The notes beneath the pieces are model-generated. The model was given only the letters and a program-made list of their open reading frames with translations, was not told the origin of the DNA and did not search any database. This document shows positions 17,352-63,676 of a DNA stretch of 64,000 nt, piece after piece. Position 1 is the stretch's first letter. Each line of letters begins with the position of its first letter. The position numbers and the translations under genes were made by a program. This stretch comes from Myxococcota bacterium (lineage in GTDB: Bacteria > Myxococcota_A > UBA9160 > UBA4427), in contig JAWKRX010000028.1 in the NCBI GenBank assembly GCA_041389425.1, forward strand, positions 6,388 to 70,387. Direction: 5' to 3'.

Positions 17352-17495
17352 GTCGTCGCTCCTCTGCCGGTTCCGATGCCCTACGCTAGCGTGCCGTGAA
17401 CCCAAGTCATGGCCCCGACCGGGCCTTCGGAGCGCCGTTTCGCACGTCCTTCGATCCGCCCATTCTTCTCGATTCCCTCTGCAGAGGAGCCCGTG

Positions 17496-18992
17496 ATGAG
17501 CCCGACCCCGAATCCGCCCCGCAGCGCCTCCACGCGCCCGCGCCCGCTCGCCGAGATCGCGCGCTGGGACGCGGAATGCGACGTCGTCGTCGTCGGCTTC
17601 GGCGCGGCAGGCGCATCGGCGGCGATCGAGGCCGCCGAGGCCGGTGGGCGCGTCATCCTCGTCGAGGTCGCCTCGGGCAGCGGCGGGACCAGCGCGATGG
17701 CGGGCGGCGACATCTATCTCGGCGGGAACGGCGGGACCGAGGTCCAGCGCGCGAACGGCTTCGTCGACGAGACCGAGGACTTCTTCCGCTACATGATGAT
17801 GGCGGGCGGGCCCGATGCCGACGAAGAACGCGTACGGATGTACGCCGACGGCGCGCTCGCGCATTTCGAATGGCTGAAGGCCCAGGGCGTGCCCTATCGG
17901 AACACCTGGATCCCCGGCAAGCCCGTCATGCCCGGGACCGGCGACTGCCTGATCCTCTCGGGCAGCGAATACGCCTGGCCCTTCAAGGAGCAGGCACGCC
18001 CCTGTCCGCGCGGCCATCTGCCCGAAGCGATCGGCGAGACGGGCGGCTTCATGCTGCTCGACAAGCTCGCGCAGCGCGTGCATGCGCTCGGCGTCGAGGT
18101 CCGCTTCCAGACCCGCGCGCGGGCGCTGGTCGTCGACGAAAAGAATCGCGTCTGCGGCCTCGTCGTCGTCACCGACGGCGAGGAGAAGGCCCTGCGCGCC
18201 CGGGGCGGCGTCGTCCTCTGCGCCGGCGGCTTCGCGCTGAACGAGGACATGCTGCGCCAGTACGTCCCGCTCCGGCCGCGGCTCGGCGCCGATGGCCTCT
18301 CCGGCGGCTACGACGACGGCTCCGGCATCCGCCTCGGGATGAGCGTCGGCGGCGCCGCCATCCACATGGACGAGATCTTCCTGACCCTGCCCTTCGACCC
18401 GCCCGAGTCCCACGTCAAGGGCATCCTCGTGAACGACAAGGGTGCGCGCTTCATCAACGAAGACGCCTACGGCGGGCGCGTCGCGCATTTCATCGCGAGC
18501 CAGATCGGCGATCGCTTTTTCCTGCTCGTCGACGACGCGATCTTCCAGCAGCCCTCGCCCTATTCGAAGATCGAGATCGCCGCCGTCGGCTCGACCTGGG
18601 AAGAGGTCGAGCGCGAGCTCGAGCTGGCGCCCGGCAGCCTCGTCGCGACCGTCGAGGTCTACAACCGCCATGCCGCCAAGGGCGAAGACCCCCTCTTCCA
18701 CAAAGACGCGAACTGGCTGAAGCCCCTCGACGAGCCGCCCTTCGCCGCCCTCGCCTGCCATCTCAAGCAGGCCTACTACCCCTTCTTCACCCTCGGCGGC
18801 CTGCGTGTGCGCCCGACGGGCGAGGTCCTCACGGTCGACGGCGATCCGATCCCCGGCCTCTACGCCGCCGGCCGCACGGCCTGCGGCCTGCCGCGCTGGG
18901 GCAAGGGCTACAGCTCGGGCATGTCGCTCGGGGATTGCACGTTCTTCGGCCGCAAGGCGGGACGCCAGGCGGCGACGACGCCACTCGACTAG
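17496..18992 (+). CDS. FAD-dependent oxidoreductase, 3-ketosteroid Delta4(5alpha)-dehydrogenase/Rv1817-like
   Basis: DVVVVGFGAAG, GGTSAMAGG, DDGSGIRLG, FTLGGL and GYSSGMSLG motifs; recalled similarity to actinobacterial Delta4-KSTD. Confidence 0.75.
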   Translation: MSPTPNPPRSASTRPRPLAEIARWDAECDVVVVGFGAAGASAAIEAAEAGGRVILVEVASGSGGTSAMAGGDIYLGGNGGTEVQRANGFVDETEDFFRYMMMAGGPDADEERVRMYADGALAHFEWLKAQGVPYRNTWIPGKPVMPGTGDCLILSGSEYAWPFKEQARPCPRGHLPEAIGETGGFMLLDKLAQRVHALGVEVRFQTRARALVVDEKNRVCGLVVVTDGEEKALRARGGVVLCAGGFALNEDMLRQYVPLRPRLGADGLSGGYDDGSGIRLGMSVGGAAIHMDEIFLTLPFDPPESHVKGILVNDKGARFINEDAYGGRVAHFIASQIGDRFFLLVDDAIFQQPSPYSKIEIAAVGSTWEEVERELELAPGSLVATVEVYNRHAAKGEDPLFHKDANWLKPLDEPPFAALACHLKQAYYPFFTLGGLRVRPTGEVLTVDGDPIPGLYAAGRTACGLPRWGKGYSSGMSLGDCTFFGRKAGRQAATTPLD

Positions 18993-46319: not shown

Positions 46320-47693
46320 ATGACCCGAAACGAGGTCCAGATCCGATTCCTGGGCGGCGCCGGCACGGTGACCGGCTCGCGTACCCTCGTCGAGGTCGAG
46401 GGTCGGCGCATCCTCGTCGACTGCGGACTCTTCCAGGGCTGGAAGACGCTGCGCCTGCGCAACTGGGCGCCCTTCCCCGTCGACCCCGCCTCGATCGACG
46501 CCGTCGTCCTCACCCACGCCCACATCGACCACTCCGGCTACCTCCCGCTCCTGATCCGCAACGGCTTCGCCGGCCCCGTCTGGTCGACGGCGGCGACGCG
46601 CGATCTCTGCAGCGTGCTGCTCCCGGACAGCGGCCGCATCCACGAGCGCGACGCCGAGCAGGCCAATCGGTACGGCTATTCGCGCCACGAGCCCGCCCTC
46701 CCGCTCTATACCGGCGAAGAAGGCGAACGCGCCCTCGACGCGTTCCGGACGACCGGGTTCCACGAGCCGACCGCGATCGCGGACGGCATCGAGCTCACGT
46801 ACCACCGCGCCGGCCACATCCTCGGCGCCGCGATCGCCGAGCTTCGCGTGCACGGGACGCGCATCGTCTTCTCCGGCGATCTCGGGCGCCCGAGCTGCCC
46901 GGTGATGCTTCCGCCGGATCCGATTCGCGAAGCCGACGTGCTGATCGTCGAATCGACCTACGGCGATCGCCGCCACGAGCACGCCGATCCCGAAGAAGCC
47001 CTCGCCGCCGTCGTCTCGCGCACGATCGCGCGGCGGGGCACCGTCCTGATCCCCGCCTTCGCCGTCGGCCGCACGCAGATCCTCCTCTACTACCTGGAGC
47101 GGCTGCGACGGAGCGGCCGGATTCCCCATGTCCCGATCGTGATGGACAGCCCGATGGCGATCGACGCGACGGAGATCTTCCGCCGGCATGCGAGCGATCA
47201 TCGCCTCGATCCGCAGCGCTGCGCCGAGGTCTGTGGCGTCGCACGCCTCGTGCGCACGCCCGACGAATCGAAGCGCCTCGACCAGTCCGGCGAACCGATG
47301 GTCCTGATCTCGGCGAGCGGCATGGCGACCGGCGGCCGGGTGCTCCATCACCTCGAGCAGATGGCGCCCGACCCGCGCAACACGCTGCTCTTCGCCGGCT
47401 ACCAGGCCCCGGGGACGCGCGGCGATCGGATCGTCCGCGGCGAGACGCAGGTCCGGCTCCACGGCCGGTCCGTGCCGATCCGCGCGGAGGTCGAGAGCCT
47501 CGACATGCTCTCGGCCCATGCGGATGCCGACGAGATCCTGGACTGGCTGAAGCATTTCGAGCGCACCCCGCGGATGACTTTCGTCAATCACGGGGAGCCG
47601 GCCGCGGCCGACGCCCTCCGCCTGCGGATCCGCGACGAGCTCGGATTTCGCGTCCGGGTCGCCGACCACGGCGAGAGCTGGAGCACGGGATGA
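46320..47693 (+). CDS. MBL-fold beta-CASP metallo-hydrolase (YSH1/RNase J-like RNA specificity domain)
   Basis: DCG, THAHIDHSG, AGHILG, ESTYG, FAVGRTQ, SAHAD and NHGE motifs. Confidence 0.9.
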   Translation: MTRNEVQIRFLGGAGTVTGSRTLVEVEGRRILVDCGLFQGWKTLRLRNWAPFPVDPASIDAVVLTHAHIDHSGYLPLLIRNGFAGPVWSTAATRDLCSVLLPDSGRIHERDAEQANRYGYSRHEPALPLYTGEEGERALDAFRTTGFHEPTAIADGIELTYHRAGHILGAAIAELRVHGTRIVFSGDLGRPSCPVMLPPDPIREADVLIVESTYGDRRHEHADPEEALAAVVSRTIARRGTVLIPAFAVGRTQILLYYLERLRRSGRIPHVPIVMDSPMAIDATEIFRRHASDHRLDPQRCAEVCGVARLVRTPDESKRLDQSGEPMVLISASGMATGGRVLHHLEQMAPDPRNTLLFAGYQAPGTRGDRIVRGETQVRLHGRSVPIRAEVESLDMLSAHADADEILDWLKHFERTPRMTFVNHGEPAAADALRLRIRDELGFRVRVADHGESWSTG

Positions 47694-54162: not shown

Positions 54163-54519
54163 ATGATCGTCACGTTCACTCTGGTCCGAAAGCGACCGCA
54201 TCTTTCCAGGGAAGAGTTCCTGAACCGCTGGGTCGAACACACCGAGCGCTTCGATCTGCCGGACCACCCATACATCGAGCGCAACCGTCTCATGCTGTTG
54301 CAGGACGAAGTCCCCTACGTCGGTCTCGCCGAGAACCACTGGCCCGACCTCGCGAGCCTCGAAGCGACGTCGGCTTTCTATCGCGAGACCGAAGCCGGCC
54401 GGCGGCATTGGGCGGACCTCGAAAGCTTCATGGACATCGACAACAGCCCGACCGTCGTGGTGACCCACGAGGCCGAAGTCTCCACCGAGGGAACGCGTCG
54501 AACGAAGTACCTCGAATGA
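54163..54519 (+). CDS. EthD domain (dimeric alpha-beta barrel) protein
   Basis: LVRKRPHLSREEF..W..H...DLESFMD; RBS GGAG. Confidence 0.8.
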   Translation: MIVTFTLVRKRPHLSREEFLNRWVEHTERFDLPDHPYIERNRLMLLQDEVPYVGLAENHWPDLASLEATSAFYRETEAGRRHWADLESFMDIDNSPTVVVTHEAEVSTEGTRRTKYLE

Positions 54520-54596
54520 GGCGCGGGGCTCGGATGGCGCGCCCGCTCGATAGAGCGACGACCCGTTACGAAGCATCCCGATCGAAGGAGGAATCC

Positions 54597-54980
54597 ATGA
54601 CCGAGCGTGAAATGACCGGCAATGAAATCGTCGTCCGCGACTTCATCAGCGCGTGGTCGCGCCTCGACGCGGCCGAGCTGGCGAGCTTCTTCAGCGAAGA
54701 CGGCATCTACCACAACATGCCGACGCGGCCCGCGCAGGGCCGCGCGAACGTGCGCGATCTGATTCGGGGATTCATCTCGAGCTGGACGGAGACGGAATGG
54801 GAGATTCGAAATCTCCTCTGTGCGGGCAATCTAGTCATCGTCGAGCGACTCGATCGAACGAAGGCGGGCGCACGGTCGGTCGATCTTCCCTGTACCGGTG
54901 TCTTCGAGCTCGAAGGGGGCAAGATCAAGCGGTGGCGTGACTACTTCGACCTCGCGACCTATCAGCGCGGCATCGGTTGA
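54597..54980 (+). CDS. Limonene-1,2-epoxide hydrolase family protein (NTF2 fold)
   Basis: YHNMP, VIVERLD and WRDYFD motifs; RBS AGGAGG. Confidence 0.88.
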   Translation: MTEREMTGNEIVVRDFISAWSRLDAAELASFFSEDGIYHNMPTRPAQGRANVRDLIRGFISSWTETEWEIRNLLCAGNLVIVERLDRTKAGARSVDLPCTGVFELEGGKIKRWRDYFDLATYQRGIG

Positions 54981-55076
54981 GGGCCCCCCTCGCCCGCGCG
55001 AGCCGGATCGTGCGCTGCGCGGCTCCAGCCGACTGCGGCCGCTCCGGGCGCGAATCCGATTGCGCTCGGGGTCTCG

Positions 55077-58000
55077 TCAGGGCGTGGCGAGGGGCGGGAG
55101 CGAGGCGCCCATGACCGGCCGGAGCTCGTCCGGCGGTGCCGTGGGCCGGAGGTCCCGGCGCTTCCAGAGGAGGTAGACGGCCGGGTAGACGAGGAGCTCG
55201 AGCAGGAACGAAGTGGCGAGACCGCCGACCATCGGCGCGGCGACGCGCTTCATCGTGTCGGCTCCGCTGCCGACCGACCAGAGCAGCGGCATCAAGCCCA
55301 GCATCGCGGCCAGGACCGTCATCAGCTTGGGCCGGATCCGCTTCACGGCCCCCTCGACGATCGCCTCGTGCAGATCGGCGACCGTCTCGAGCCTTCCTGC
55401 CCGTTTGCGCGCGTCCATTGCGAGGTCGAGAAAGAGAAGCATGAAGACTCCCGTCTCCGCATCGAGCCCCATCAACGCGATCATTCCGACCCAGACGGCG
55501 ACCGAGACTTGATAGTCGAGCAGGTAGAGGAACCAAACGGCGCCGATCAACGAGAATGGAACCGCCAGGAGTACGATTCCCACCTTGACCAGGGAGCGCG
55601 TGCTCAGGAAGAGCAGCACCGCGATCGAGCCGAGCACCAGCGGCAGGACGATCTTCAGCCGATTCGCGACCCGCTGCATGCTCTCGTATTGCCCGCTCCA
55701 GGCGAGCGAGTACCCCGGCGGCAGCTCGAATTTCGCATCGACCAGGGCTCGCGCCGCGTCGACCCACCCGCCGACGTCGCGCCCCTCGACATCGACCAGG
55801 ACGTAGGCGGCGAGACGGCCATCCTCGTTCCGGATCATCCCGGCGCCCTCGACTCGTCGGATCTCGGCGAGTTCTCCGAGCGCGACACTCCCGCCCGAAA
55901 CGAGCGGAACGAGCAAGTTCGCAATGTCGCTCGGCCGCTCTCGGCGCTCGCGCGGATACCGGACGCTGATCCCGATCCGCTCCCGCCCGTCGATCACTTC
56001 CGCGACCGGCGCTCCGCCGATCGCGATCGCCACGGCGCGATTGAGATCGACGACCGATGCGCCATGGAAGGCGAGCGCTTCGCGGTTCGGCACGACGTCG
56101 ATGAAATGGCCCCCGGCCGAGCGCTCGGCGACGACGCTGCGCGTTCCGGGCAGCTCGCTCAGGAGTCCCTCGAGCCGCTCCGAAATCCGCTGGATGCCGT
56201 CGGAGTCGGGGCCGAGGACCTTGACGCCGATCGGCGTGCGGATGCCGGTGGCGAGCATGTCGATCCGCCCGCGGATCGGAAGCGTCCAGTTGTTGGGAAC
56301 GCCGGGGATCTGCAAACGGGCGTCGAGTTCCGCGCGCAATTCCCCGGGAGAGATCCGATCGGGCCAGACGAGGCGAAGCGGCGGCTTGACCCATTCCGGA
56401 GCCGCCGAATACCAGCGCGGCTTCTCCCTCCATCGCGCGCTCGGCTTCAAGACGATCGTCGTCTCGACCATGGACAGGGGCGCGGGGTCGGTCGCGGAGT
56501 CGAAGCGTCCCGCCTTCCCGAAGACGGTTTCGATTTCGGGAACCTGCTTCAGGATGCGATCCTGGACGTTGATCAGACGCTGCGCCTCGCTCGCCGAAAT
56601 GCCCGGGAGCGTACTCGGCATGTAGAGCAGCGTGCCCTCGTCGAAGGGCGGCATGAACTCGGAACCGATCCGCAGCGCGATCGGAACGGTCGCGAGCGTG
56701 AGCGCGAGAGCCATTCCGATCGTCGCGAGGGGATGCCTCAGGACGAGACGGCAGGCGGGCTCGTATACGCGAAAGAGGACCCGGCTCACCGGATGTCGCT
56801 CCTCGGGGCGATAGCGCCCGACGGCGAGCCAGTTCCATAGGCGACTGAGCACCACCGGACGAAAACGAAAGGGCTCCATCCGCGTGAACGTCATGCGGAG
56901 CGCGGGATCGAGCGTAATGGCCAGCACGGCAGCCAGGGCCATCGCCAGCGTCTTCGACCAGGCGAGCGGCTCGAACATGCGTCCTTCCTGTCCCTCGAGC
57001 GCGAACAGAGGAAGGAATCCGACCGCGATGACGAGCAGGGAAAAGAACACCGAAGGCGCCACTTCCTGGAGCGCGGCGAGCCGAACGGCGTGGAAATCGC
57101 CTCGACATCCCCCTGCCTGCCACTGCTGGATCCGCTTGTAGGCGTTCTCGACCTCGACGATCGCCCCGTCGACGAGCACGCCGATCGAAATCGCGATCCC
57201 CGCGAGCGACATGACGTTGATCCCGATGCCGAGCGCGAACAGAGGCAGGAAGGACAGCACGACGGCCGTCGGAATCGTGGCGATCGGGACGATCGCGGAA
57301 GGCGCATGCCAGAGGAAGAGCAGGATCACCCCGCTGACGATCAGCATTTCCTCGCCGAGCGCCCGGAATAGCGTCGAGAGCGAGCGGCGGATCAGCGGCG
57401 CACGGTCGTAGACCGGCACGATCTCGACTCCGGCCGGCAAGGACGCGCGGATTTCGTCGAGAGCGCGCTCGACCCGACCGATCAGGGCGAGTGCATTCTC
57501 GCCCTGCCGCATCACGACGACGGCGCCGACTGTGTCGCCCTCGCCATCGAGGTCCGCGACGCCGCGCCGAGGACGCGGACCGAGCGACACGCGAGCGAGA
57601 TCCCCGACCAGAATGGGCCGACCGATTTCGGCGCCGTCGGCCACCACGATCTGCTCGATGTCCTCGGCGTCTTCGATGCTCCCTCGGCCCCGGATCATGA
57701 ATTCGGTGCCCGCGATCTCGAGCAGCCTGCCGCCCCGCTCGTCGTTGCCCGCGCGCACCGCTTCGACGACGCGCGCGAGGGAAACTCCGTAGGCGAGTTG
57801 CGCGTCCGGATCGAGACTGACCTGATACTCGCGGACGGCACCGCCGATCGACGCGACCTCCGCGACGCCGGAGACGGCCTCGAGGCGGTAGCGCAGGACG
57901 TTGTCCTGGAGGCTTCGCAACGCCGCGAGATCGTGCGCGCCGGAATCATCGCGGAGCGCGTATTGATAGACCCAACCCACGCTCGTCGCGTCGGGCCCGA

Positions 58001-58382
58001 GCTCGGTCCTCACGCCGTCCGGCAGTCCGGGCAGGACCGTCGCGAGCTGCTCCGCGACCCGGAACCGGGCCCAATCGGGCTCGGTTCCGTCCTCGAAGAG
58101 GACATAGACGAAGGAATGGCCGTAGTCCGAAACGCCGCGCACGGTCTTGACCCGCGCCCCGCCGAGCAGCGCGCTCACGATCGGAAACGTCACCTGATCC
58201 TCGATCACGTCCGGGCTGCGATCCCAGCGCGAGAAGACGATCACCTGCGTATCGGATAGATCGGGGATCGCGTCCAGCGGCAGCCGGCTGGCCGACCACG
58301 CCGCGCCGAGCAGTGCGATGACCGTCGTGGCGATGACGATCAGGCGGTTACGCACGCTCCAGTCGACGATGCGTCCGATCAA
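55077..58382 (-). CDS. cusA: CusA/CzcA family heavy-metal (Cu/Ag) RND efflux permease
   Basis: LPLDAIPDLSDTQVI, DATSVGWVYQY, MSLAGIAISIGVLVDG, EGRMFEP, DMLATGIRTP and KRIRPKLMT motifs. Confidence 0.92.
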   Translation of the reverse strand: MIGRIVDWSVRNRLIVIATTVIALLGAAWSASRLPLDAIPDLSDTQVIVFSRWDRSPDVIEDQVTFPIVSALLGGARVKTVRGVSDYGHSFVYVLFEDGTEPDWARFRVAEQLATVLPGLPDGVRTELGPDATSVGWVYQYALRDDSGAHDLAALRSLQDNVLRYRLEAVSGVAEVASIGGAVREYQVSLDPDAQLAYGVSLARVVEAVRAGNDERGGRLLEIAGTEFMIRGRGSIEDAEDIEQIVVADGAEIGRPILVGDLARVSLGPRPRRGVADLDGEGDTVGAVVVMRQGENALALIGRVERALDEIRASLPAGVEIVPVYDRAPLIRRSLSTLFRALGEEMLIVSGVILLFLWHAPSAIVPIATIPTAVVLSFLPLFALGIGINVMSLAGIAISIGVLVDGAIVEVENAYKRIQQWQAGGCRGDFHAVRLAALQEVAPSVFFSLLVIAVGFLPLFALEGQEGRMFEPLAWSKTLAMALAAVLAITLDPALRMTFTRMEPFRFRPVVLSRLWNWLAVGRYRPEERHPVSRVLFRVYEPACRLVLRHPLATIGMALALTLATVPIALRIGSEFMPPFDEGTLLYMPSTLPGISASEAQRLINVQDRILKQVPEIETVFGKAGRFDSATDPAPLSMVETTIVLKPSARWREKPRWYSAAPEWVKPPLRLVWPDRISPGELRAELDARLQIPGVPNNWTLPIRGRIDMLATGIRTPIGVKVLGPDSDGIQRISERLEGLLSELPGTRSVVAERSAGGHFIDVVPNREALAFHGASVVDLNRAVAIAIGGAPVAEVIDGRERIGISVRYPRERRERPSDIANLLVPLVSGGSVALGELAEIRRVEGAGMIRNEDGRLAAYVLVDVEGRDVGGWVDAARALVDAKFELPPGYSLAWSGQYESMQRVANRLKIVLPLVLGSIAVLLFLSTRSLVKVGIVLLAVPFSLIGAVWFLYLLDYQVSVAVWVGMIALMGLDAETGVFMLLFLDLAMDARKRAGRLETVADLHEAIVEGAVKRIRPKLMTVLAAMLGLMPLLWSVGSGADTMKRVAAPMVGGLATSFLLELLVYPAVYLLWKRRDLRPTAPPDELRPVMGASLPPLATP

Positions 58383-59527
58383 GGACCCGGCTCTTGATGA
58401 TGTCCGTGTCCGTCGGCATGATCGTGGCTGGCCGGTGCATCGGATCCCCGATCCGAATGCGCCGAGTCCGTCGTTTCCGGAGCGTTCTGCAGCCTGCTCT
58501 TCCCGTAGGCCGCGACCGCCGCGCGAAATCGAGACTCGGAATCGATCAGGAAATTCGCGGCGGTCACGACGTGCTCGCCGGCGGTGAGGCCCGCGAGCAC
58601 CTCGACCTGGCCCTCCCCCTCGACGCCGACGACGACCTCACGCGGATCGAAGCGGCCCGCTTCGTCGGAAACGAAGAGCATCTGCCGCACACCGGTGTCG
58701 AGCAGAGCGTCCTCGGGGACCGCCAGCCGCCTTCCGAGCGGAATCTCGACCGCGAGGCGAACGAACGCCTCGCCGCGCAGACCGCCGCCGGGGGTCGAGA
58801 CGAGCGCGCGCACACGCGCGCTGCCGCCGCGAGTTCCCGCATCGGGATCGATCGTGACGATTTCGCCCAGGTAGAGCCGCCCCGGCCGTCCGGGGGCCGT
58901 CACGCGAACGCGCTGTCCTTCCCGCAACGATTCCGCATCATGGAAGACGCGCGCATAGACCCACGCGCTCCGCCCCGGCAGAAGCAGACTCTGGGCACTC
59001 ACCCCGGAATCGAAGATCCGTCCGAGCTGATCGAAGGACAACCCGAGCAGGCGGAGTCGAACGGCCAGTGCACGCCTCTCCTCGAGCAGCCGTGCGCCCT
59101 CTCCTTCCTGCGCCGACGCCGCCAGCACGTCGTGGTAGTCCGCGAGCGCGGCATAGAGCTCCGGATCGAACGCGACGCGGCCGGCCGTTCGGATCTCCCG
59201 GTGAATCTCCCGATAGGCCGCCTGCGCCGTCGTGACTCCGATCGTCTGGGTCCGCCAGGGTTCGACCGCGAACCCGACATGGCTGGCCGGGTCGCCGGCG
59301 GCGTCGAACGACGCCGCCGGCTCGGACTCAACCGGGGTCAACTCCATCCCGCAGATTCCACAGCGATCCGGACCGCTCGAAACGACCTCCGGATGCATCG
59401 GGCATTGATAGACGACGGCCTCTCGCGACCCTCCCTCGTCCCTGGCGCCCTCGCATCCGGTTGCCGTCACGGCGAGCGCGAAGACGAGCGCCACGACGGC
59501 CGCCAGGAAACGTTCCGTTCTCCGCAT
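58379..59527 (-). CDS. CusB-like periplasmic adaptor with heavy-metal-binding domain and His-rich tail
   Basis: Lipobox TGC; YQCPMHP...CGICGMEL; ANFLIDSES; C-terminal HSD...HDHADGHGHH. Confidence 0.85.
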   Translation of the reverse strand: MRRTERFLAAVVALVFALAVTATGCEGARDEGGSREAVVYQCPMHPEVVSSGPDRCGICGMELTPVESEPAASFDAAGDPASHVGFAVEPWRTQTIGVTTAQAAYREIHREIRTAGRVAFDPELYAALADYHDVLAASAQEGEGARLLEERRALAVRLRLLGLSFDQLGRIFDSGVSAQSLLLPGRSAWVYARVFHDAESLREGQRVRVTAPGRPGRLYLGEIVTIDPDAGTRGGSARVRALVSTPGGGLRGEAFVRLAVEIPLGRRLAVPEDALLDTGVRQMLFVSDEAGRFDPREVVVGVEGEGQVEVLAGLTAGEHVVTAANFLIDSESRFRAAVAAYGKSRLQNAPETTDSAHSDRGSDAPASHDHADGHGHHQEPGP

Positions 59528-59584
59528 TCCGCTACTCCTGCCCCGCGAACCCGAATGCGCTCGGACGCGCTGGGACGCGCCCCT

Positions 59585-60526
59585 TCAACGCAGGATGATC
59601 TGCTCGCCCCGGCCCAGCTTCGGATCCGCATCCTTCGAGGTCATCAGCACGCTGATCGCTCCGCGCAGCGCTCGGCTCATCGCATGATCCACGATCGCAT
59701 TGTTGGTCGATCGATCCGCCGGCGGCACGAGGTCGAAAGTCGCTGCAGAAGCCGGGGGAATCAGATAGGTCTGAACTCCCTCCATCACGTTGCGGGGATT
59801 TCCGTGGTCGTAGACCCGGTCCCAGATTCCGGCGATCGGATGAAGCGCGACCGAATCGTTGATGCTGGCATTGACGTAGAAGATGCGAACCCGCTCGCCC
59901 GGGTTCGCCTGGAGCGTCTTGCCCGCGTTGGGGTCGTGCACGGGGTCGTAATGAAACACTTTCCCGTTGATCAACGCGCCGATCCAGTTCTTTCCGTCGA
60001 GAAGATCTTCGACCGCCGTTCCCTCCCGGAAGAGATCGCCCTGCACGAGGACGTATTCGCGATCCGGCTTGGGATAGGCCGCGGAGAACCCGTCTTTCGG
60101 GTCGACGATGATGACCCCGTACATCCCGCGCGAGATGTGCTCGGCCATGGAGGATGCGCCGCAGTGGTAGATGAACGCGCCGGGATACTTCGCTTCGAAT
60201 TTGAACGTCTTGGTCCCGCCGGGCTTGATCTCGGCGAATTCGTCGAGGACGTCGACGATCGCCGCATGAAAGTCCATCGAATGACTGTTCTTGTTCGCCG
60301 GGTCGTTGGTCAGGGCGAACTGGACGACGTCCCCCTGTTTGACTCGCACGACGGGCCCGGGAATCGTTCCGTCGTAGGTCCACATCTTCTGGGTCGTACC
60401 CTTGTTGTCGACGGGCAGATCGACCTCCTTGACGGTCATCGCCACGTCGACGGTCCCGCCGAGGGCGGGCATGGCGAGGAGCATCGCGAGAGCGGCGGTC
60501 GGTAGAGCTCGGAGAACGGATTGCAT
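59585..60526 (-). CDS. nirK: Copper-containing nitrite reductase, Nitrosomonas europaea/Nitrobacter-type
   Basis: Signal peptide; HSMDFHA (T1 His, catalytic Asp, T2 His), YHCG..EHISRGM, LHPIAGIWDRV and AIVDH; C-terminus GRGEQIILR as in recalled Nitrosomonas NirK. Confidence 0.9.
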   Translation of the reverse strand: MQSVLRALPTAALAMLLAMPALGGTVDVAMTVKEVDLPVDNKGTTQKMWTYDGTIPGPVVRVKQGDVVQFALTNDPANKNSHSMDFHAAIVDVLDEFAEIKPGGTKTFKFEAKYPGAFIYHCGASSMAEHISRGMYGVIIVDPKDGFSAAYPKPDREYVLVQGDLFREGTAVEDLLDGKNWIGALINGKVFHYDPVHDPNAGKTLQANPGERVRIFYVNASINDSVALHPIAGIWDRVYDHGNPRNVMEGVQTYLIPPASAATFDLVPPADRSTNNAIVDHAMSRALRGAISVLMTSKDADPKLGRGEQIILR

Positions 60527-60622
60527 GACGATTGTCTTCCTCTTTCCAGAATAGGGGAGCAGCACCGAGCCGATCTCCTTGAGCGACTCGAGTGCAGTCC
60601 GATCACGGGGACACGACACGTC

Positions 60623-62188
60623 TCAGGGACGCGGAGAGCCCGCCGTCTCCGCACCGCGGAAGCCGGGATTCTCGAAGAGACCGGGGCCCTTGCCGAGACT
60701 CTCGCTGTAGTAGAAATCGGGGTCGTACTGCTTGTCCTTCCAGGCGTACCAGTCGGGTCTCTCGATTTCGTCGTACTCGAAGATCAACATCGATCCGCCC
60801 ATGTCCTTGCCGGCATTGGTCACGTGTTCGTCGACGTGGTCGTGGGTGACCCAGAGCCCCGGATTGTCCATCCGGACGATCGCGTCGTAACGCTCCCCCT
60901 GCTCGACGTGGACGACGTCGGCCCAATAGGGTTCGGGGAGCGGGAGGCCGTCCTTGTGAGTCACGAGCACGTCGTGTCCGTGCAGGTGGAAGCCGACCTC
61001 CGTCCCCGCGCCGAAGATGCGGAGTCGGACGACGTCTCCCTGCTTGACCCGGAGCGGCTGAGTGAGGGGAAACGATTTCCCGTTGATCGAGAAGTAGTCG
61101 CGCAGCTCGGAGGGATGTCCGCCGACGCCGTAACGGTCCGCGAACTTGGAGTTCCAGCCCGAGAACATGAGGATCGCGTCCTTGGTCACCTCCTGTTCGA
61201 GCTTCGTGGGCTCGATCGGGTCGACGACGAAGGGGCCCCACATTCCGCGAATCGAGATGTGCTCGGCGACGTTGACGTGGCAGTGGTACCAGAGCGTACC
61301 CGTACGCGTCGCGATGAAGTGATAGGTGAAGCTCCCGCCCGGCGGAACCGGCTTCTGCGTCACGTTCGGCACGCCGTCGCTCTGCCAGGTTCCCTGCTGA
61401 TGCATGCCGTGCCAATGGATCGTGTGGTCCATCGTCGACAGGTTCACGAACTTCACCTTGACCTCGTCGCCCTCGCGGACCCGAAGCAGCGGTCCCGGGA
61501 CCTGTCCATTGAACGCCCAGACCTTGGCGTTGAAGCCGGGAGCCACTTCGACCTCGGTCTCCTCGACCCGGATCTCGAACTCCCGGAGGCGGCTACGTCG
61601 GTACTTCTTCTTCAACGAAGCGGGGGGCGGAGGCGCGACGACGTCGAGCGCATCGGAGGCTTCCGCCACCGGGGACGCGACGCGCAGCGGCGTCGAAGCC
61701 GCTGCGGTCGGTGACCCGATGGGAGCTCGATGCGCCGCCGTCGCGGCTTCCGGCTCGGCCTCCGCCCCCCTGGAATTCGGTGCGACCGCGGTCGTCGCGA
61801 CGATCGGCGTCCCGGACCCGCCGCCCCCGGTCCCCGACAGCGTTCGAAGATGCTTCACGAGCGAAGCGATCTGCGCGTCCGAGAGGACGCCGCGCCAGGG
61901 CGGCATCAGCACGGATTTTCCGACTGCCGGCCCCCCCTCCGAAATCGCGGCGTGCAGATCCCGATCGGTCCGCGTCGCCATCTCCCGTGTGTCCGTATGG
62001 TCGCGGGGCTGGACGGCGAGCGCCGGGACGTTCAATCCCTTGCCGTCGCCCCCGATGCCATGGCAGGCCGTGCAATAGGTCCGATAGAGCACTGCTCCTT
62101 CGGTCTCGGCCGAACGCGCCAGCGCAGTACCGCCGAACATGCACGCCAGAGCCCAGGTGGCGAGCCACGCAAACGATCGCTTCTTCAT
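60623..62188 (-). CDS. Fusion of monoheme cytochrome c, Ala/Pro linker and two-domain (type C) multicopper oxidase, NcgA/BCO-like
   Basis: CTACH...LMPPW; HTIHWHG, WYHCHVNVAEH..RGM, FHLHGH, THDHVDEH and PDFYYSESL motifs. Confidence 0.88.
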   Translation of the reverse strand: MKKRSFAWLATWALACMFGGTALARSAETEGAVLYRTYCTACHGIGGDGKGLNVPALAVQPRDHTDTREMATRTDRDLHAAISEGGPAVGKSVLMPPWRGVLSDAQIASLVKHLRTLSGTGGGGSGTPIVATTAVAPNSRGAEAEPEAATAAHRAPIGSPTAAASTPLRVASPVAEASDALDVVAPPPPASLKKKYRRSRLREFEIRVEETEVEVAPGFNAKVWAFNGQVPGPLLRVREGDEVKVKFVNLSTMDHTIHWHGMHQQGTWQSDGVPNVTQKPVPPGGSFTYHFIATRTGTLWYHCHVNVAEHISIRGMWGPFVVDPIEPTKLEQEVTKDAILMFSGWNSKFADRYGVGGHPSELRDYFSINGKSFPLTQPLRVKQGDVVRLRIFGAGTEVGFHLHGHDVLVTHKDGLPLPEPYWADVVHVEQGERYDAIVRMDNPGLWVTHDHVDEHVTNAGKDMGGSMLIFEYDEIERPDWYAWKDKQYDPDFYYSESLGKGPGLFENPGFRGAETAGSPRP

Positions 62189-62919
62189 CGTCCGTCCTCA
62201 CTCAGCAGACGCAGGTACTCCATCAGCTTCCCGACTTCTGCGGGCGCCAATCCGTAATCCGGCATCGGCGCGACGGGATCCCAGGCCTGCGGCTTCGCGA
62301 TGAAGCTGGCCAGGAACTCCGGTCGCAAGCGCGCCCAGGCGTCGAACAGGTCGGGACCGGAGAGCGGTGGCCCATCCGGCGTCACGCGATGACAGGACCC
62401 GCAACCCTTGAACTTGCTGAAGTTGAGCTCGGCGAGCATGCGGGGCATGGCGGGCAGTTCAGGGTTCGTCTTCGGGAGCATTTCGCTCCCCCAATCGAGT
62501 GCAGCGAGCGCCTTCACGACTTCGTCGATCTGGTCGGACGCGAGACGCGGATGCGGCGCCGGGGCCGAATCGAGCACGTCTCCCGCCGGAGTCCGCTTCG
62601 TATGGTCGCCTGGATGCAGGCCCGCCGGGCGGATCGCGCGCGGCTCGGCGAGCCAGGCCGCCAGCCAATCGGATCGATACTTCGCGCCGGAGTAGAAGAG
62701 ATCCGGCCCTTTGCGCGTCGCATGACGTTCGACGGTCTGCTCGTCCGGTCGGGGTGCCGAGATCAGGTGGCAGGCGTTGCAGCCGGCCCGATCCAGGACC
62801 GAAACGTCCGCCGGGGCCTGCGCCTCGGCCGTCAGGGTCCAGGCGGCCGCCACGAGGAAGACGAACATCGAAAAGGCCTGCCTCGAATTGCCGATCCGAT
62901 CGTCGCGGTCTAGCCTCAT
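62185..62919 (-). CDS. Diheme cytochrome c (ncg-type)
   Basis: Signal peptide; CNACH and CGSCH, each followed by GPDL; ATGA overlap with the next gene. Confidence 0.85.
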   Translation of the reverse strand: MRLDRDDRIGNSRQAFSMFVFLVAAAWTLTAEAQAPADVSVLDRAGCNACHLISAPRPDEQTVERHATRKGPDLFYSGAKYRSDWLAAWLAEPRAIRPAGLHPGDHTKRTPAGDVLDSAPAPHPRLASDQIDEVVKALAALDWGSEMLPKTNPELPAMPRMLAELNFSKFKGCGSCHRVTPDGPPLSGPDLFDAWARLRPEFLASFIAKPQAWDPVAPMPDYGLAPAEVGKLMEYLRLLSEDGR

Positions 62920-63027
62920 TGCGCTTCGACTCCGAGTCCTGCTCCGTCTCACGGGCCCCGTCCTTCCGAGAGCCGATCGAATCGTCGCCCGGGCGGGCTT
63001 CGCGGCTGCGATTTCGACGTCGCGTTG

Positions 63028-63052
63028 ATTGTGGAGTTTGAAGTACCACAAT
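63028..63052. promoter_or_regulatory. Rrf2/NsrR-type operator candidate ATTGTGGAGTTT-G-AAGTACCACAAT
   Basis: ATTGTGG-N11-CCACAAT palindrome in the AT-rich divergent intergenic region; TTT-n-AA core. Confidence 0.6.
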
Positions 63053-63085
63053 TAGCGATCCGCCGTCAACGGGCAATTCTCCGAA

Positions 63086-63547
63086 ATGCGACTCACCCAA
63101 TTCACCGACTACGGGCTGCGCGTTCTCATGTACGTGGCGAGCCGCGAAGGGGAATTCGTTCCGACCGAGCGGATCGCGACGATCTTCGCGATCTCGCAGG
63201 ACCATCTGCTCAAGGTCGTTCGACGTCTCGTGGAGCTGGGCTACGTCGAGGCGAAGCGGGGCGCTCGCGGAGGCGTTCGGCTCCAGCCCGCGGCGCGCAC
63301 GGCGACCGTGGGCGAGGTCATTCGAAACCTCGAGCCGCAACTCCTGGTCGAGTGCTTCGATCCGGAAGTCAATCAATGCCCGATCGCGGAATTCTGCGGA
63401 CTCTCGTCCCTGCTGCGGCGGGCAGGGGCGGCGTTCTACCGTGAACTCGACCGCGTCTCAATCGGGGAGCTGATGCCGTCGGCCGCCCTGCGCAAAGGGT
63501 GGCCGCCCATCGACTCCGATTCGAAGAAGAGCCGGAGATCCAGATAG
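63086..63547 (+). CDS. nsrR: Rrf2 family NO-sensing repressor NsrR
   Basis: MRLTQFTDYGLRVLMY, HLLKVV, RGARGG and three Cys (VECF..QCP..FCGL). Confidence 0.85.
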   Translation: MRLTQFTDYGLRVLMYVASREGEFVPTERIATIFAISQDHLLKVVRRLVELGYVEAKRGARGGVRLQPAARTATVGEVIRNLEPQLLVECFDPEVNQCPIAEFCGLSSLLRRAGAAFYRELDRVSIGELMPSAALRKGWPPIDSDSKKSRRSR

Positions 63548-63610
63548 CGCAGCGCGATCTCCACGCAGAAGGCAGTCCGGGTCGTCGATCGACGCGCCCC
63601 GTGCCGCCTT

Positions 63611-63653
63611 CGTCGGCCAGCGCGCTTCGGTCGCGCCCTTCGATCGGCCGACG
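63611..63653. terminator. GC hairpin with cUUCGg-type loop between convergent genes
   Basis: cgtcggcc...gcgcg-cttcgg-tcgcgc...ggccgacg. Confidence 0.35.
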
Positions 63654-63676
63654 GATGATGGCGTCGGCCCTTCGGA

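Follow-up and report, generated by a model that had tools for sequence, protein, structure and literature searches.

A set of four redox genes with an adjoining regulator was first described in Nitrosomonas, and the nsrR/ncgA-ncgB-ncgC-nirK cluster of N. europaea was reportedly studied by Beaumont et al. (2004, 2005), with the structures 3G5W and 4KNS coming from its products. We read the reference order from contig P0121, whose NirK is identical over the 4KNS sequence: nsrR on the minus strand, then the genes for a multicopper oxidase (MCO), a dihaem cytochrome, a monohaem cytochrome and nirK. A second arrangement, nirK-ncgB-ncgC-ncgA under NorR control, is found in Gammaproteobacteria and Alphaproteobacteria (among them the Pseudomonadales MAGs L005 and L021, Haliea and Thioalkalivibrio denitrificans). 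In Thiobacillus denitrificans (locus L096) ncgABC-nirK is followed by genes for an HMBD protein, CusB and CusA. Finally, the metagenome-derived two-domain laccase mgLAC (PDB 2ZWN) was studied alone as a "laccase", apart from any genomic partners.

The locus described here lies in a window of 64,000 nucleotides (the whole stretch analysed) from a Myxococcota MAG, and is a local version of the Nitrosomonas set in which two genes are fused and a copper pump is attached. The original prediction placed a nitrifier-type nsrR-ncg-nirK cassette at positions 59585-63547, and every gene claimed was found there, each of the five parts pairing with its N. europaea counterpart at 34-54% identity. Like the N. 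europaea cluster, the locus combines the same five protein families with a divergent Rrf2 regulator, a promoter palindrome and products that are all predicted to be periplasmic. The operon runs on the minus strand in the order ncgB-like, ncgC::ncgA, nirK, cusB, cusA, with the nsrR-like gene upstream and divergent, in such a way that ncgA-ncgB-ncgC-nirK of N. europaea becomes ncgB - ncgC::ncgA - nirK, NcgC and NcgA form one polypeptide and cusBA is appended. The nitrifier order had been given as MCO, cytochromes, nirK, which agrees with P0121, so the arrangement was rightly called rearranged. The order is also a cyclic permutation of that in the NorR-controlled operons, which share the four redox genes but, unlike the window, start with nirK, keep cytochrome and oxidase genes separate except in locus L063, are often governed by the sigma-54 activator NorR and not by a repressor, and generally lack cusBA.

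The first gene of the operon (62185-62919, minus strand) encodes an NcgB-like dihaem cytochrome c of 244 aa with a Sec-type signal peptide and the motifs CNACH at residue 47 and CGSCH at residue 173, and is 34% identical to N. europaea NcgB (E 7e-43). The ends of the transcript contigs, at 63016-63018, rule out translation from the TTG at 63051, and the ATG at 62919 fits as the start. An ATGA overlap joins this gene to the fusion gene (60623-62188, minus strand; 521 aa with a signal peptide), in which an NcgC-like domain (residues ~25-120), a low-complexity linker of ~75 aa rich in Ala, Pro and Gly (~120-198) and a type-C two-domain NcgA-like MCO (~200-521) follow one another. The family hits (PF00034/PF13442, Cu-oxidase_3 and Cu-oxidase_2) and the motifs CTACH39, MPPW95, HCH302, HLHGH401 and HDH449 match this layout, and the NcgC and NcgA parts are 40% and 54% identical to their N. 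europaea counterparts. The best structural template of the oxidase part was mgLAC (2ZWN, E 1e-136), followed by N. europaea NcgA (3G5W, E 9e-114); mgLAC has the same type-C layout with HCH in its first domain, lacks a cytochrome domain and falls among the N. europaea and methanotroph oxidases, apart from the window. The predicted monohaem-MCO fusion is a genuine open frame, kept in all eight related loci and transcribed. Cytochrome-MCO fusions make up 34 of the best 120 homologous protein clusters, and a second, independent one, also in an open frame, occurs in the Bryobacterales locus L063. Fusion of the two points to the monohaem cytochrome as the direct redox partner of the oxidase.

The nirK gene (59585-60526, minus strand) encodes a protein of 313 aa with a Sec-type signal peptide, of the short N. 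europaea type, whose best PDB match was 4KNS (E 2.4e-102) and whose score against TIGR02376 (177 bits) is below the cut-off of 296. The quoted motifs HSMDFHA, HPIAGIWDRV and GRGEQIILR are all present, and the ligand motifs and the C-terminal GRGE..I.R are shared with N. europaea. The copper ligands and the catalytic Asp and His were predicted to be intact, and alignment to 4KNS bore this out for the T1, T2 and Asp/His positions (HSMDFH82, HC121-122, H130, M135, H229 and H281).

The relation to nitrifiers was studied through trees and gene neighbourhoods. The species genomes carrying this NirK type number 256; the 80 closest all belong to non-nitrifiers, and among those 80 loci none lacked a partner gene where the contig could show one. 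Three gene orders occur among the surveyed loci; on the NirK tree each of them is monophyletic or almost so, and the MCO tree agrees. The window falls, for both NirK and oxidase, in a well-supported clade of Myxococcota, Binatia and Thermodesulfobacteriota MAGs that stands apart from Nitrosomonas and has the NorR-controlled operons as its sister on the NirK tree; gene order and fusion are common to its members, and cusBA is usual. A cassette derived from nitrifiers, or a relic hinting at the origin of the cassette, would be consistent with the N. europaea homologue of each part and with the shared regulator type. However, a NirK branch of length 0.97 with SH-aLRT 95 parts the 81 sequences of the window lineage from Nitrosomonas and its neighbours, the MCO tree places N. 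europaea NcgA with methanotroph, T. denitrificans and mgLAC sequences and apart from the window, Nitrosomonas is a small twig amid non-nitrifiers (outside Nitrosomonas, the nearest relatives of N. europaea NirK are those of Thiobacillus, Inhella and Mitsuaria), and identities reach merely 34-54%, so that we regard a nitrifier source as highly improbable. Occurrence in non-nitrifying Zetaproteobacteria is already published (PMC3603346), and a NirK clade is described as comprising comammox, non-nitrifying Proteobacteria and a few ammonia oxidisers (PMC10999283). The parts, order, fusion, cusBA linkage and gene absences of the original prediction thus stand, and its suggestions of an undescribed module outside nitrifiers and of a clue to the cassette's origin do not, given the separate trees and the spread of the set among non-nitrifiers; a gene set so common in ordinary non-nitrifying bacteria gives no clue to nitrifier ancestry.

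Within the phylum, this NirK was detected in 3 of 401 sampled genomes, all of one genus, and the block is missing from eight of ten sister genomes of the host genus. The whole block covers 9.2 kb (54481-63676) and includes an NTF2/ketosteroid-isomerase-like gene plus cusA through nsrR, with a GC content of 0.65-0.67 against ~0.69 for the window. Its flanks, the left one up to 54480 and the right one from 63677, are collinear in the same-genus genomes G268, G368 (contig C2) and G088, where they enclose other genes over 2.2, 4.3 and 9.0 kb, respectively. The block is therefore accessory, filling a variable hot spot between genus-conserved flanks. An assembly or binning artefact, with the cassette foreign to the genome or the contig chimeric at the nsrR/SDR junction, was also considered, having in mind that the right flank matches a sister genome at 95% identity whereas the cassette, which is inverted, reaches just 70-79%, and that an assembly break ends the contig 1.9 kb beyond. 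Against this, contigs that cross the nsrR/SDR junction with 0-21 differences come from four separate studies, an independent MAG (KLAP59) is collinear over the left junction at 84% identity, and the three sister genomes are collinear with both flanks; the chance of an artefact is close to negligible, and we reject a chimeric contig. The steroid-degrader context proposed for the window was not borne out either: it contains SDRs, enoyl-CoA hydratases, three P450s, a KstD-related flavoprotein, a Rieske oxygenase and acyl-CoA dehydrogenases, but in a family-profile search no steroid-specific family exceeded its cut-off.

The regulator gene (63086-63547, plus strand) encodes an Rrf2-family protein of 153 aa (PF02082, 102 bits) that is 39% identical (E 6e-32) to the Rrf2 gene product adjoining the N. 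europaea cluster. It scores 108.6 bits against NCBIfam NsrR and 107.4 against RirA, each below its own cut-off, and has three cysteines, at residues 90, 98 and 104. The sub-threshold NsrR score, the equal RirA score and the Cx7Cx5C spacing speak against an NsrR/NO reading. Just 3' of a TTGAC box (63065-63069, minus strand) lies a 25-bp palindrome, ATTGTGGAGTTTGAAGTACCACAAT (63028-63052), a candidate NsrR operator that overlaps the divergent promoters and ends 10-12 nt upstream of the transcript contig ends. It is conserved across the clade, the consensus ATTGTGGTATTTCAAATACCACAAT following the TTGAC box in all eight related loci, and no other site in the 5.97-Mb genome is strong (33.4 bits, against 19.6 for the runner-up). 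N. europaea has a palindrome of its own at the equivalent place, with operator AAAGATATATTA.. compared with ATTGTGG.. in the window. The layout suggests that the Rrf2/NsrR-like protein binds the palindrome. A gene for an NO sensor lies within 1.2 kb in 64 of the 68 loci with enough flank (26 NsrR-like, 38 NorR-like), the NorR query scoring 678 bits against the NorR equivalog model (cut-off 476), and in the NorR-controlled operons too the NO sensor adjoins the operon. These neighbours, and the clade-conserved, genome-unique palindrome, suggest that NO is the signal of the operon.

Expression was analyzed in four wastewater metatranscriptomes, where the block was covered at 100% identity. Contig depth, a poor expression measure from strandless contigs, was 40-118 for nirK (the highest of the block), 15-57 for the ncg genes, 2-20 for cusB and ~0-3 for nsrR and the flank, compared with 0-9 for a housekeeping region of the same genome. 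Transcripts of the dihaem cytochrome and fusion genes were thus seen in situ, cusA was low yet present, and RNA contigs 57978-59651 and 58157-59651 link nirK, cusB and cusA. The block is strongly transcribed, with nirK highest and weaker read-through into cusBA.

As predicted, cusBA follows nirK. CusB (58379-59527, minus strand; 382 aa, PF19335 HMBD and PF16576) is a CusB-like periplasmic adaptor with an N-terminal metal-binding domain (CPMHP at residue 42) and a His-rich tail, and cusA (55077-58382, minus strand), whose start overlaps the cusB end by 4 nt, encodes a Cu(I)/Ag(I) RND pump of 1101 aa (TIGR00914, 938 bits, above cut-off) that scores 882 bits against E. coli CusA (3K07 and related entries) versus 443 against ZneA and conserves the positions aligned to Met573, Met623 and Met672. 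Neither cusC nor cusF was found adjoining cusBA in the locus. An outer-membrane factor may sit unlinked elsewhere. In T. denitrificans a CusBA-type pump without cusC also lies directly 3' of nirK, with a CusA 46% identical, but with unfused genes in N. europaea order and a NirK that is 79% identical to that of N. europaea and beside Nitrosomonas on the tree, outside the window lineage, so the linkage seemingly arose twice. That recurrence, the co-transcription of cusBA directly 3' of nirK and the weak MCO matches to CopA and CueO families might be read as a copper-homeostasis island, in which the oxidase would be a CueO-like cuprous oxidase working with CusBA, and NirK and the cytochromes would be passengers. 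We consider this very unlikely: cusBA adjoins the set only in nine of the 80 surveyed loci (the window's clade) and in T. denitrificans, about 70 of the 80 having the four redox genes but no cusBA, the regulators sense NO and are not CueR or CusRS, the MCO belongs to the NcgA/mgLAC type and falls well short of the CopA and CueO cut-offs, and within the block transcript depth is lowest for cusBA. Most likely CusBA buffers or supplies periplasmic copper for the two trimers, which we take, from published structures of related enzymes, to hold 18 copper sites (6 per NirK trimer and 12 per oxidase trimer).

The direction in which NirK works has to be judged against the host. The prediction that the window has no nor, amo or nxr was confirmed and extended to the 92%-complete MAG (AMO being searched for without a ringing control); the host, unlike N. 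europaea, is a non-nitrifier. In the same MAG no NarG/NxrA, NapA, NirS, NorB, NosZ or Hmp globin was found (the NosZ-propeller search also had no ringing control), and the haem-copper oxidases are cbb3 and aa3 only; nor or hmp could sit in the missing 8%. In the forward direction NirK would make NO from nitrite, either to detoxify nitrite or as a truncated denitrification step, with NcgB and NcgC as its electron donors and the MCO as an accessory electron sink or oxygen scavenger. The intact catalytic residues of a nitrite reductase, the closest solved structure, named and studied as one, and the nitrite-rich wastewater are in line with this. Purified N. europaea NirK is reportedly a competent nitrite reductase (in the 4KNS paper), which counts against NO oxidation, and nirK mutants of N. 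europaea are said to be nitrite-sensitive, which fits the forward direction as well. The N. europaea literature, as quoted in PMC5080386, ties nirK and ncgABC to nitrite tolerance. By contrast, the MAG shows neither an NO-removing enzyme (NorB, Hmp globin and NosZ) nor a nitrate reductase as a nitrite source, control by NsrR or NorR sensors would be positive feedback on a toxic product, and the constant company of the O2-reducing oxidase with NirK, and its cytochrome fusion, would stay unexplained. With no host pathway for nitrite-made NO, an NO-induced NO producer would poison itself, whereas an NO-induced remover of NO would be ordinary feedback; forward NirK is possible but the less probable reading.

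We favour, with a little more than even confidence, an NO-induced periplasmic NOx detoxification module that probably oxidises NO with O2. The Rrf2/NsrR-like repressor would sit on the promoter-overlapping palindrome, NO would inactivate its Fe-S cluster, and ncgB - ncgC::ncgA - nirK would be transcribed, with weaker read-through to cusB-cusA. The four redox proteins, all predicted to be Sec-exported, would then meet in the periplasm, where three c-haems (two in NcgB, one in the fused cytochrome domain) may form a short electron wire from NirK to a putatively trimeric, O2-reducing two-domain oxidase. It is an even call that NirK turns NO into nitrite, with the electrons moving through the haems to the oxidase and from there to O2, for a proposed net reaction of 4 NO + O2 + 2 H2O -> 4 nitrite + 4 H+. 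The NO2-/NO potential of ~+0.35 V is near or above the usual cytochrome c potentials, so NO oxidation would need the pull of the oxidase. A study of Nitrobacter winogradskyi, a species with the same cluster, showed NO consumption, could not confirm NO production, and suggested that ncgABC serves NOx consumption or detoxification (PMC5080386); a suggestion of possible NO oxidation to nitrite by N. europaea NirK is cited in PMC10999283.

We conclude with high confidence that the locus is a clade-specific variant of nsrR/ncgABC-nirK, horizontally acquired by an uncultured aerobic Myxococcota-type heterotroph of wastewater and activated-sludge biofilms.

The gene content of the locus was established from the ORF list and from family-model scans of the window. 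A gene of the Rrf2 family (63086-63547, forward strand; PF02082, 102 bits) diverges from an operon on the reverse strand, which starts with a dihaem cytochrome c similar to NcgB (62185-62919; CxxCH motifs CNACH47 and CGSCH173) and continues with a 521-aa protein (60623-62188) made of a signal peptide, a monohaem cytochrome domain similar to NcgC (CTACH39) and, after an Ala/Pro/Gly-rich linker of around 75 residues, a two-domain multicopper oxidase (MCO) similar to NcgA. It is followed by nirK (59585-60526, 313 aa), whose best solved relative is the N. europaea enzyme (4KNS, E 2.4e-102), by cusB (58379-59527, with HMBD and barrel-sandwich domains) and by cusA (55077-58382, 882 bits against E. 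coli CusA). At this locus no cusC or cusF was found in the operon, the gene after cusA being a convergent NTF2-like gene.

In pairwise comparisons with the N. europaea counterparts, identities of 54% for the NcgA part, 52% for NirK, 39% for the Rrf2 protein, 34% for the NcgB-like protein (E 7e-43, two CxxCH motifs) and 40% for the NcgC-like part (E 5e-30, one CxxCH motif), which is the N-terminal domain of the oxidase, were found. The oxidase is a type-C two-domain MCO, homologous to NcgA, with an HCH motif in its first cupredoxin domain, and its structure matches are the metagenome-derived laccase mgLAC (2ZWN, E 1e-136) and N. europaea NcgA (3G5W, E 9e-114). Alignment of the NirK to 4KNS showed that the T1 and T2 copper ligands and the catalytic Asp and His are all conserved; its score against TIGR02376 (177.3 bits) lies under the cut-off of 296.3. 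This model was built on classical NirK, from which the 4KNS-type branch, including the N. europaea enzyme, is divergent. The positions of the three-Met Cu(I) site of E. coli CusA (Met573, Met623 and Met672) are also conserved in the CusA protein.

The arrangement in N. europaea was read from contig P0121, whose NirK is identical over the 4KNS sequence. There, nsrR, on the minus strand, is followed by four separate genes in the order MCO, dihaem cytochrome, monohaem cytochrome and nirK (ncgA-ncgB-ncgC-nirK), whereas in the window the order is ncgB-ncgC::ncgA-nirK with two of the genes fused, an order shared by eight other loci. The single open frame for ncgC and ncgA was detected in the window, in all eight complete loci with its gene order and separately in one Bryobacterales locus with the order nirK-ncgB-ncgC-ncgA, the two genes being separate in all the other loci surveyed among the best 80 of 256 genomes. 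At the protein level, 34 of the best 120 homologue clusters hold both the cytochrome and the copper-oxidase domains (489-591 aa), under database names as plain as "multicopper oxidase", "cytochrome c553" or "manganese oxidase". The stand-alone oxidases carry a Sec-type signal peptide that ends right before ELRKFEMTIEE, the start of the mature domain, in such a way that the fusion exchanged a stop codon and a signal peptide for a linker. We also considered that the fusion forced a new export route, possibly offset by cusBA, but the stand-alone oxidases of other clades are likewise Sec-type, with no twin-arginine motif in their true signal. The fusion has arisen at least twice, good comparative evidence that NcgC would be the direct redox partner of the oxidase and one link of the electron path.

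The distribution of this type of NirK was studied in a scan of 185,579 species, with one genome per species, and 256 of them were found to encode it. The best 80 of these 256 (62-92% identity) are all non-nitrifiers, among them Myxococcota, Binatia, Thermodesulfobacteriota, Haliea, Pseudomonadales, Rhodospirillaceae, Steroidobacteraceae, Thioalkalivibrio, relatives of Arcobacter, methanotrophs, Bryobacterales and Rhodocyclaceae. When the proteins of the window were used as tblastn queries against these 80, in no locus was a partner gene missing where the contig could have held it. Three gene orders were detected within the 80: that of the window, nsrR divergent from ncgB-ncgC-ncgA-nirK(-cusBA), in eight complete loci and a truncated one (order A); nirK-ncgB-ncgC-ncgA in around 64 loci (order B); and ncgA-ncgB-ncgC-nirK, as in N. 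europaea, in six methanotroph loci (order C). In one order A locus, from the Myxococcota MAG JB083 (L003/L015, 8980-11046), a 377-aa protein takes the place of cusBA; it has no family match and, from its ending ...GFQYSF, looks like an outer-membrane barrel, and its gene is followed by a convergent gene for cytochrome P460, a hydroxylamine/NO-related haem protein.

In the phylogeny of NirK the window belongs to a clade of 11 members (SH-aLRT 98), formed by ten order A sequences, its own included, and a further truncated locus (L014) that clusters with them. This clade is sister to the order B sequences, with the order C group of methanotrophs next, and a long branch (support 95, length 0.97) separates all of these from Nitrosomonas and the sequences of Thiobacillus, Inhella, Mitsuaria and Nitrospinae that accompany it. 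The MCO tree agrees, with order A monophyletic (99) and with N. europaea NcgA, the Thiobacillus denitrificans oxidase and mgLAC grouping with order C and not with the window. Even for the N. europaea NirK, the nearest relatives outside Nitrosomonas (around 75-81% identity) include the non-nitrifiers Thiobacillus, Inhella and Mitsuaria. In T. denitrificans cusBA is also found downstream of nirK, a link that seems to have arisen there independently.

Non-nitrifier cases are also found in the literature, as the cluster was already noted in Zetaproteobacteria (PMC3603346), and a published NirK clade unites comammox bacteria with non-nitrifying Proteobacteria and a few ammonia oxidisers (PMC10999283). 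Together with the distribution and the trees, they make "nitrifier-type" a historical label. The set belongs mainly to ordinary aerobic or facultative bacteria rather than to nitrifiers. The locus, with its fusion, its changed order and its added cusBA, is a new version of a gene set that is already known and is widespread, and it is not a nitrifier relic. Of the original prediction, all the genes that it named, their rearrangement and the fusion stand, as supported by the gene content and the reference locus, but not the possible clue to the origin of the cassette; a nitrifier origin fails, since neither NirK nor the MCO groups with Nitrosomonas and the best 80 of the 256 genomes are non-nitrifiers. 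Nor is the module undescribed outside nitrifiers, as was also proposed, given how widespread it is in organisms some of which were already published. The literature that we searched treats the ncgABC-nirK set almost exclusively in nitrifiers. NcgABC was reportedly first described in 2005.

The host is represented by a MAG of 5.97 Mb in 78 contigs, 92% complete, and genomes of its genus are labelled at NCBI as Deltaproteobacteria or Myxococcota. The absence of nor, amo and nxr, noted for the window, could be extended by family searches to this MAG. No NarG/NxrA, NapA, NirS or NosZ over threshold was found in it. Nor was NorB, so that the nitrate, NO and N2O reductases of a respiratory denitrification pathway were not found; the haem-copper oxidases of the MAG number just two, a cbb3 CcoN (747 bits) and a frameshifted aa3 subunit I. 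The globin domain of flavohaemoglobin (Hmp) was not found either. The searches of the MAG for AMO (PF02461) and for the NosZ propeller (PF18764) gave no match, but with silent controls, which makes these two negatives weak; a repeat search for NosZ with TIGR04246 found none either. The cbb3 oxidase on contig C16 is intact, and the aa3 subunit I gene (contig C34, 13652-14994) is split across two frames, either by a frameshift error in the MAG or as a pseudogene. The host is an aerobic heterotroph whose 92%-complete MAG shows, apart from this set, none of the denitrification or NO-detoxifying enzymes that were searched for.

The rest of the window corresponds to generic catabolism of hydrophobic substrates. 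No steroid-specific family scored above its cut-off there, and the steroid-degrader setting first assigned to it was not upheld; that impression probably came from an FAD-binding protein (17409-18989, forward strand) which belongs to the PRK07121 subfamily (741 bits, over cut-off) and has low-scoring kinship to 3-ketosteroid dehydrogenases. A beta-CASP/metallo-beta-lactamase RNase (46320-47690, forward strand) reaches 392 bits against a "type VII CRISPR Cas14" model, whose cut-off is 800, and 292 bits against archaeal aCPSF1; it is most probably a common nuclease of the beta-CASP type.

A chimeric contig had to be considered, since the right flank shares 95% identity with a sister genome whose cassette is inverted and only 70-79% identical. 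The contig proved sound: four independent studies yielded contigs that run across the nsrR/SDR junction, an independent MAG, KLAP59, keeps collinearity through the left junction, and three sister genomes agree with the window on both flanks. The end of the full contig (C28 of the genome, 72066-72296) lies inside an acyl-CoA dehydrogenase gene and, in an alignment to a sister genome, overlaps by around 230 nt the start of contig C55 (1-1224), which makes the two contigs neighbours.

NirK of this type was found only in the host and in two of ten same-genus genomes, among 401 sampled genomes of the phylum. The flanks of the block (up to 54480 and from 63677) are collinear in three same-genus loci, where they enclose 2.2, 4.3 and 9.0 kb of other genes (L110, 2798-4963; L111, 3169-7436; L112, 2224-11245). 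In one sister genome, G368, the cassette is at another place, beside a transposase and a second SDR-APH-ACAD copy. The block is therefore accessory cargo in a variable site, and in this genus cargo of different kinds collects at a hot spot bounded by the conserved left flank and by the SDR-APH-ACAD genes. In one of the three loci, that of genome G088, the cargo includes a Fur/PerR-like regulator and a gene that by its sequence looks like a KatG-type catalase-peroxidase, and the hot spot would there house a further unit of stress defence. The second SDR-APH-ACAD copy of G368 (contig C24, 13713-15946) is 95% identical to window positions 63675-65909 and its native copy (C2, 796973-799157) is 79% identical, a pattern that suggests that the flank was recently exchanged between species. 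The transposase, of the Y2 type, adjoins the cassette in this sister genome only, and no convincing terminal inverted repeats were found when mobile-element ends bounding the block were looked for.

In the intergenic region a TTGAC box precedes a palindrome of 25 bp (63028-63052) that overlaps the promoter, a layout kept in the window and in all eight sister loci, with the consensus ATTGTGGTATTTCAAATACCACAAT. The half-site of the palindrome resembles the NsrR consensus, G-A/T-T-G-C/T-A-T-T-T. N. europaea has a palindrome at the equivalent promoter place, but of different sequence. In the Binatia and Thermodesulfobacteriota loci (L010, 4984-5780, and L012, 4950-5727) an extra ORF of around 165 aa with no NCBIfam match lies between nsrR and ncgB, and in L010 a second copy of the palindrome immediately precedes ncgB. 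A strict sigma-70 scan found no promoter match, the evidence for the promoter being the TTGAC box and the RNA ends described below.

A matrix built from 10 sites detected no second strong palindrome in the whole genome, the runner-up adjoining a tRNA gene. This speaks against a wider NsrR regulon, and the Rrf2 regulator looks dedicated to the NirK operon. The protein has the PF02082 winged-helix domain and three Cys (residues 90, 98 and 104) that are candidate Fe-S ligands; it scores 108.6 bits against the NsrR model NF008240 (cut-off 182) and 107.4 against the RirA model NF008886, in such a way that the name NsrR rests on context and on the identity to the N. europaea gene. Sufficient flanking DNA is available for 68 of the best 80 loci, and in 64 of these 68 a gene for an NO sensor lies within 1.2 kb, which is Rrf2/NsrR-like in 26 and NorR-like in 38, the NorR query being a bona fide NorR by a curated model. 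The repeated recruitment of two unrelated NO sensors points to NO as the signal for the set, and NO is probably its substrate as well.

The organism is present in biofilm, activated-sludge and wastewater metagenomes, and the block was covered at 100% identity by assembled contigs in four wastewater metatranscriptomes. Contig depth, a rough measure of expression only, was 15-57 for the dihaem gene and the fusion, 40-118 for nirK, 2-20 for cusB, 0-5 for cusA, 0-3 for nsrR and about 0 for the SDR flank; in the same runs a housekeeping region of this genome had a depth of 0-9. DNA carry-over would not be expected to produce so steep a profile. Two contigs (57978-59651 and 58157-59651) each link nirK, cusB and cusA. 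The transcript contigs end at 63016-63018, 10-12 nt from the palindrome, in agreement with transcription starting at that point, and TTG 63051 is thereby excluded as the start of the dihaem gene. The set is strongly transcribed in wastewater communities, from a host whose MAG has no other recognisable enzyme for NO or nitrite.

The locus encodes a periplasmic set of NirK, three c-type haems and one O2-reducing oxidase, under what looks like a dedicated Fe-S regulator. We propose that NO would inactivate the Rrf2 repressor, that NirK would act as an NO:cytochrome c oxidoreductase, that the haems would connect it to the oxidase and that the oxidase would hand the electrons on to O2. We hold the chances about even that the set removes NO in this way. 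Such a direction would give negative feedback under an NO sensor, would account for an oxidase that is an obligate partner and in some cases a covalently joined one, and agrees with Nitrobacter, which has the same cluster and for which NO consumption has been reported and NO production is unconfirmed (PMC5080386). The forward reaction, from nitrite to NO, for which all the copper ligands and catalytic residues are in place, is a serious rival and a real possibility. CusBA would most likely buffer or deliver periplasmic Cu(I) for the two copper-rich trimers, the weakest of these inferences. More tentatively, and less likely than not, the set could be a self-contained periplasmic NO:O2 oxidoreductase, in which NirK would oxidise NO to nitrite, the three c-type haems would carry the electrons and the two-domain MCO would reduce O2, with the fusion as the end of the wire, and the main NO defence of a host in which no Nor or Hmp was found; it would then protect the cell from NO leaked by the nitrifiers and denitrifiers of the sludge.

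The locus is without bearing on the origin of nitrification, and its value is that the variant and its host inform on the function of NcgABC-NirK. If the reading as a self-contained NO:O2 oxidoreductase is true, the same chemistry would be a candidate for the NO-to-nitrite step of bacterial ammonia oxidation. A cytochrome and its oxidase in a single polypeptide, in a host with NirK only, offer a clean system in which to ask if the counts of "NirK" in metagenomes mean production or removal of NO, a question of importance when NO and N2O are budgeted for treatment plants and soils.
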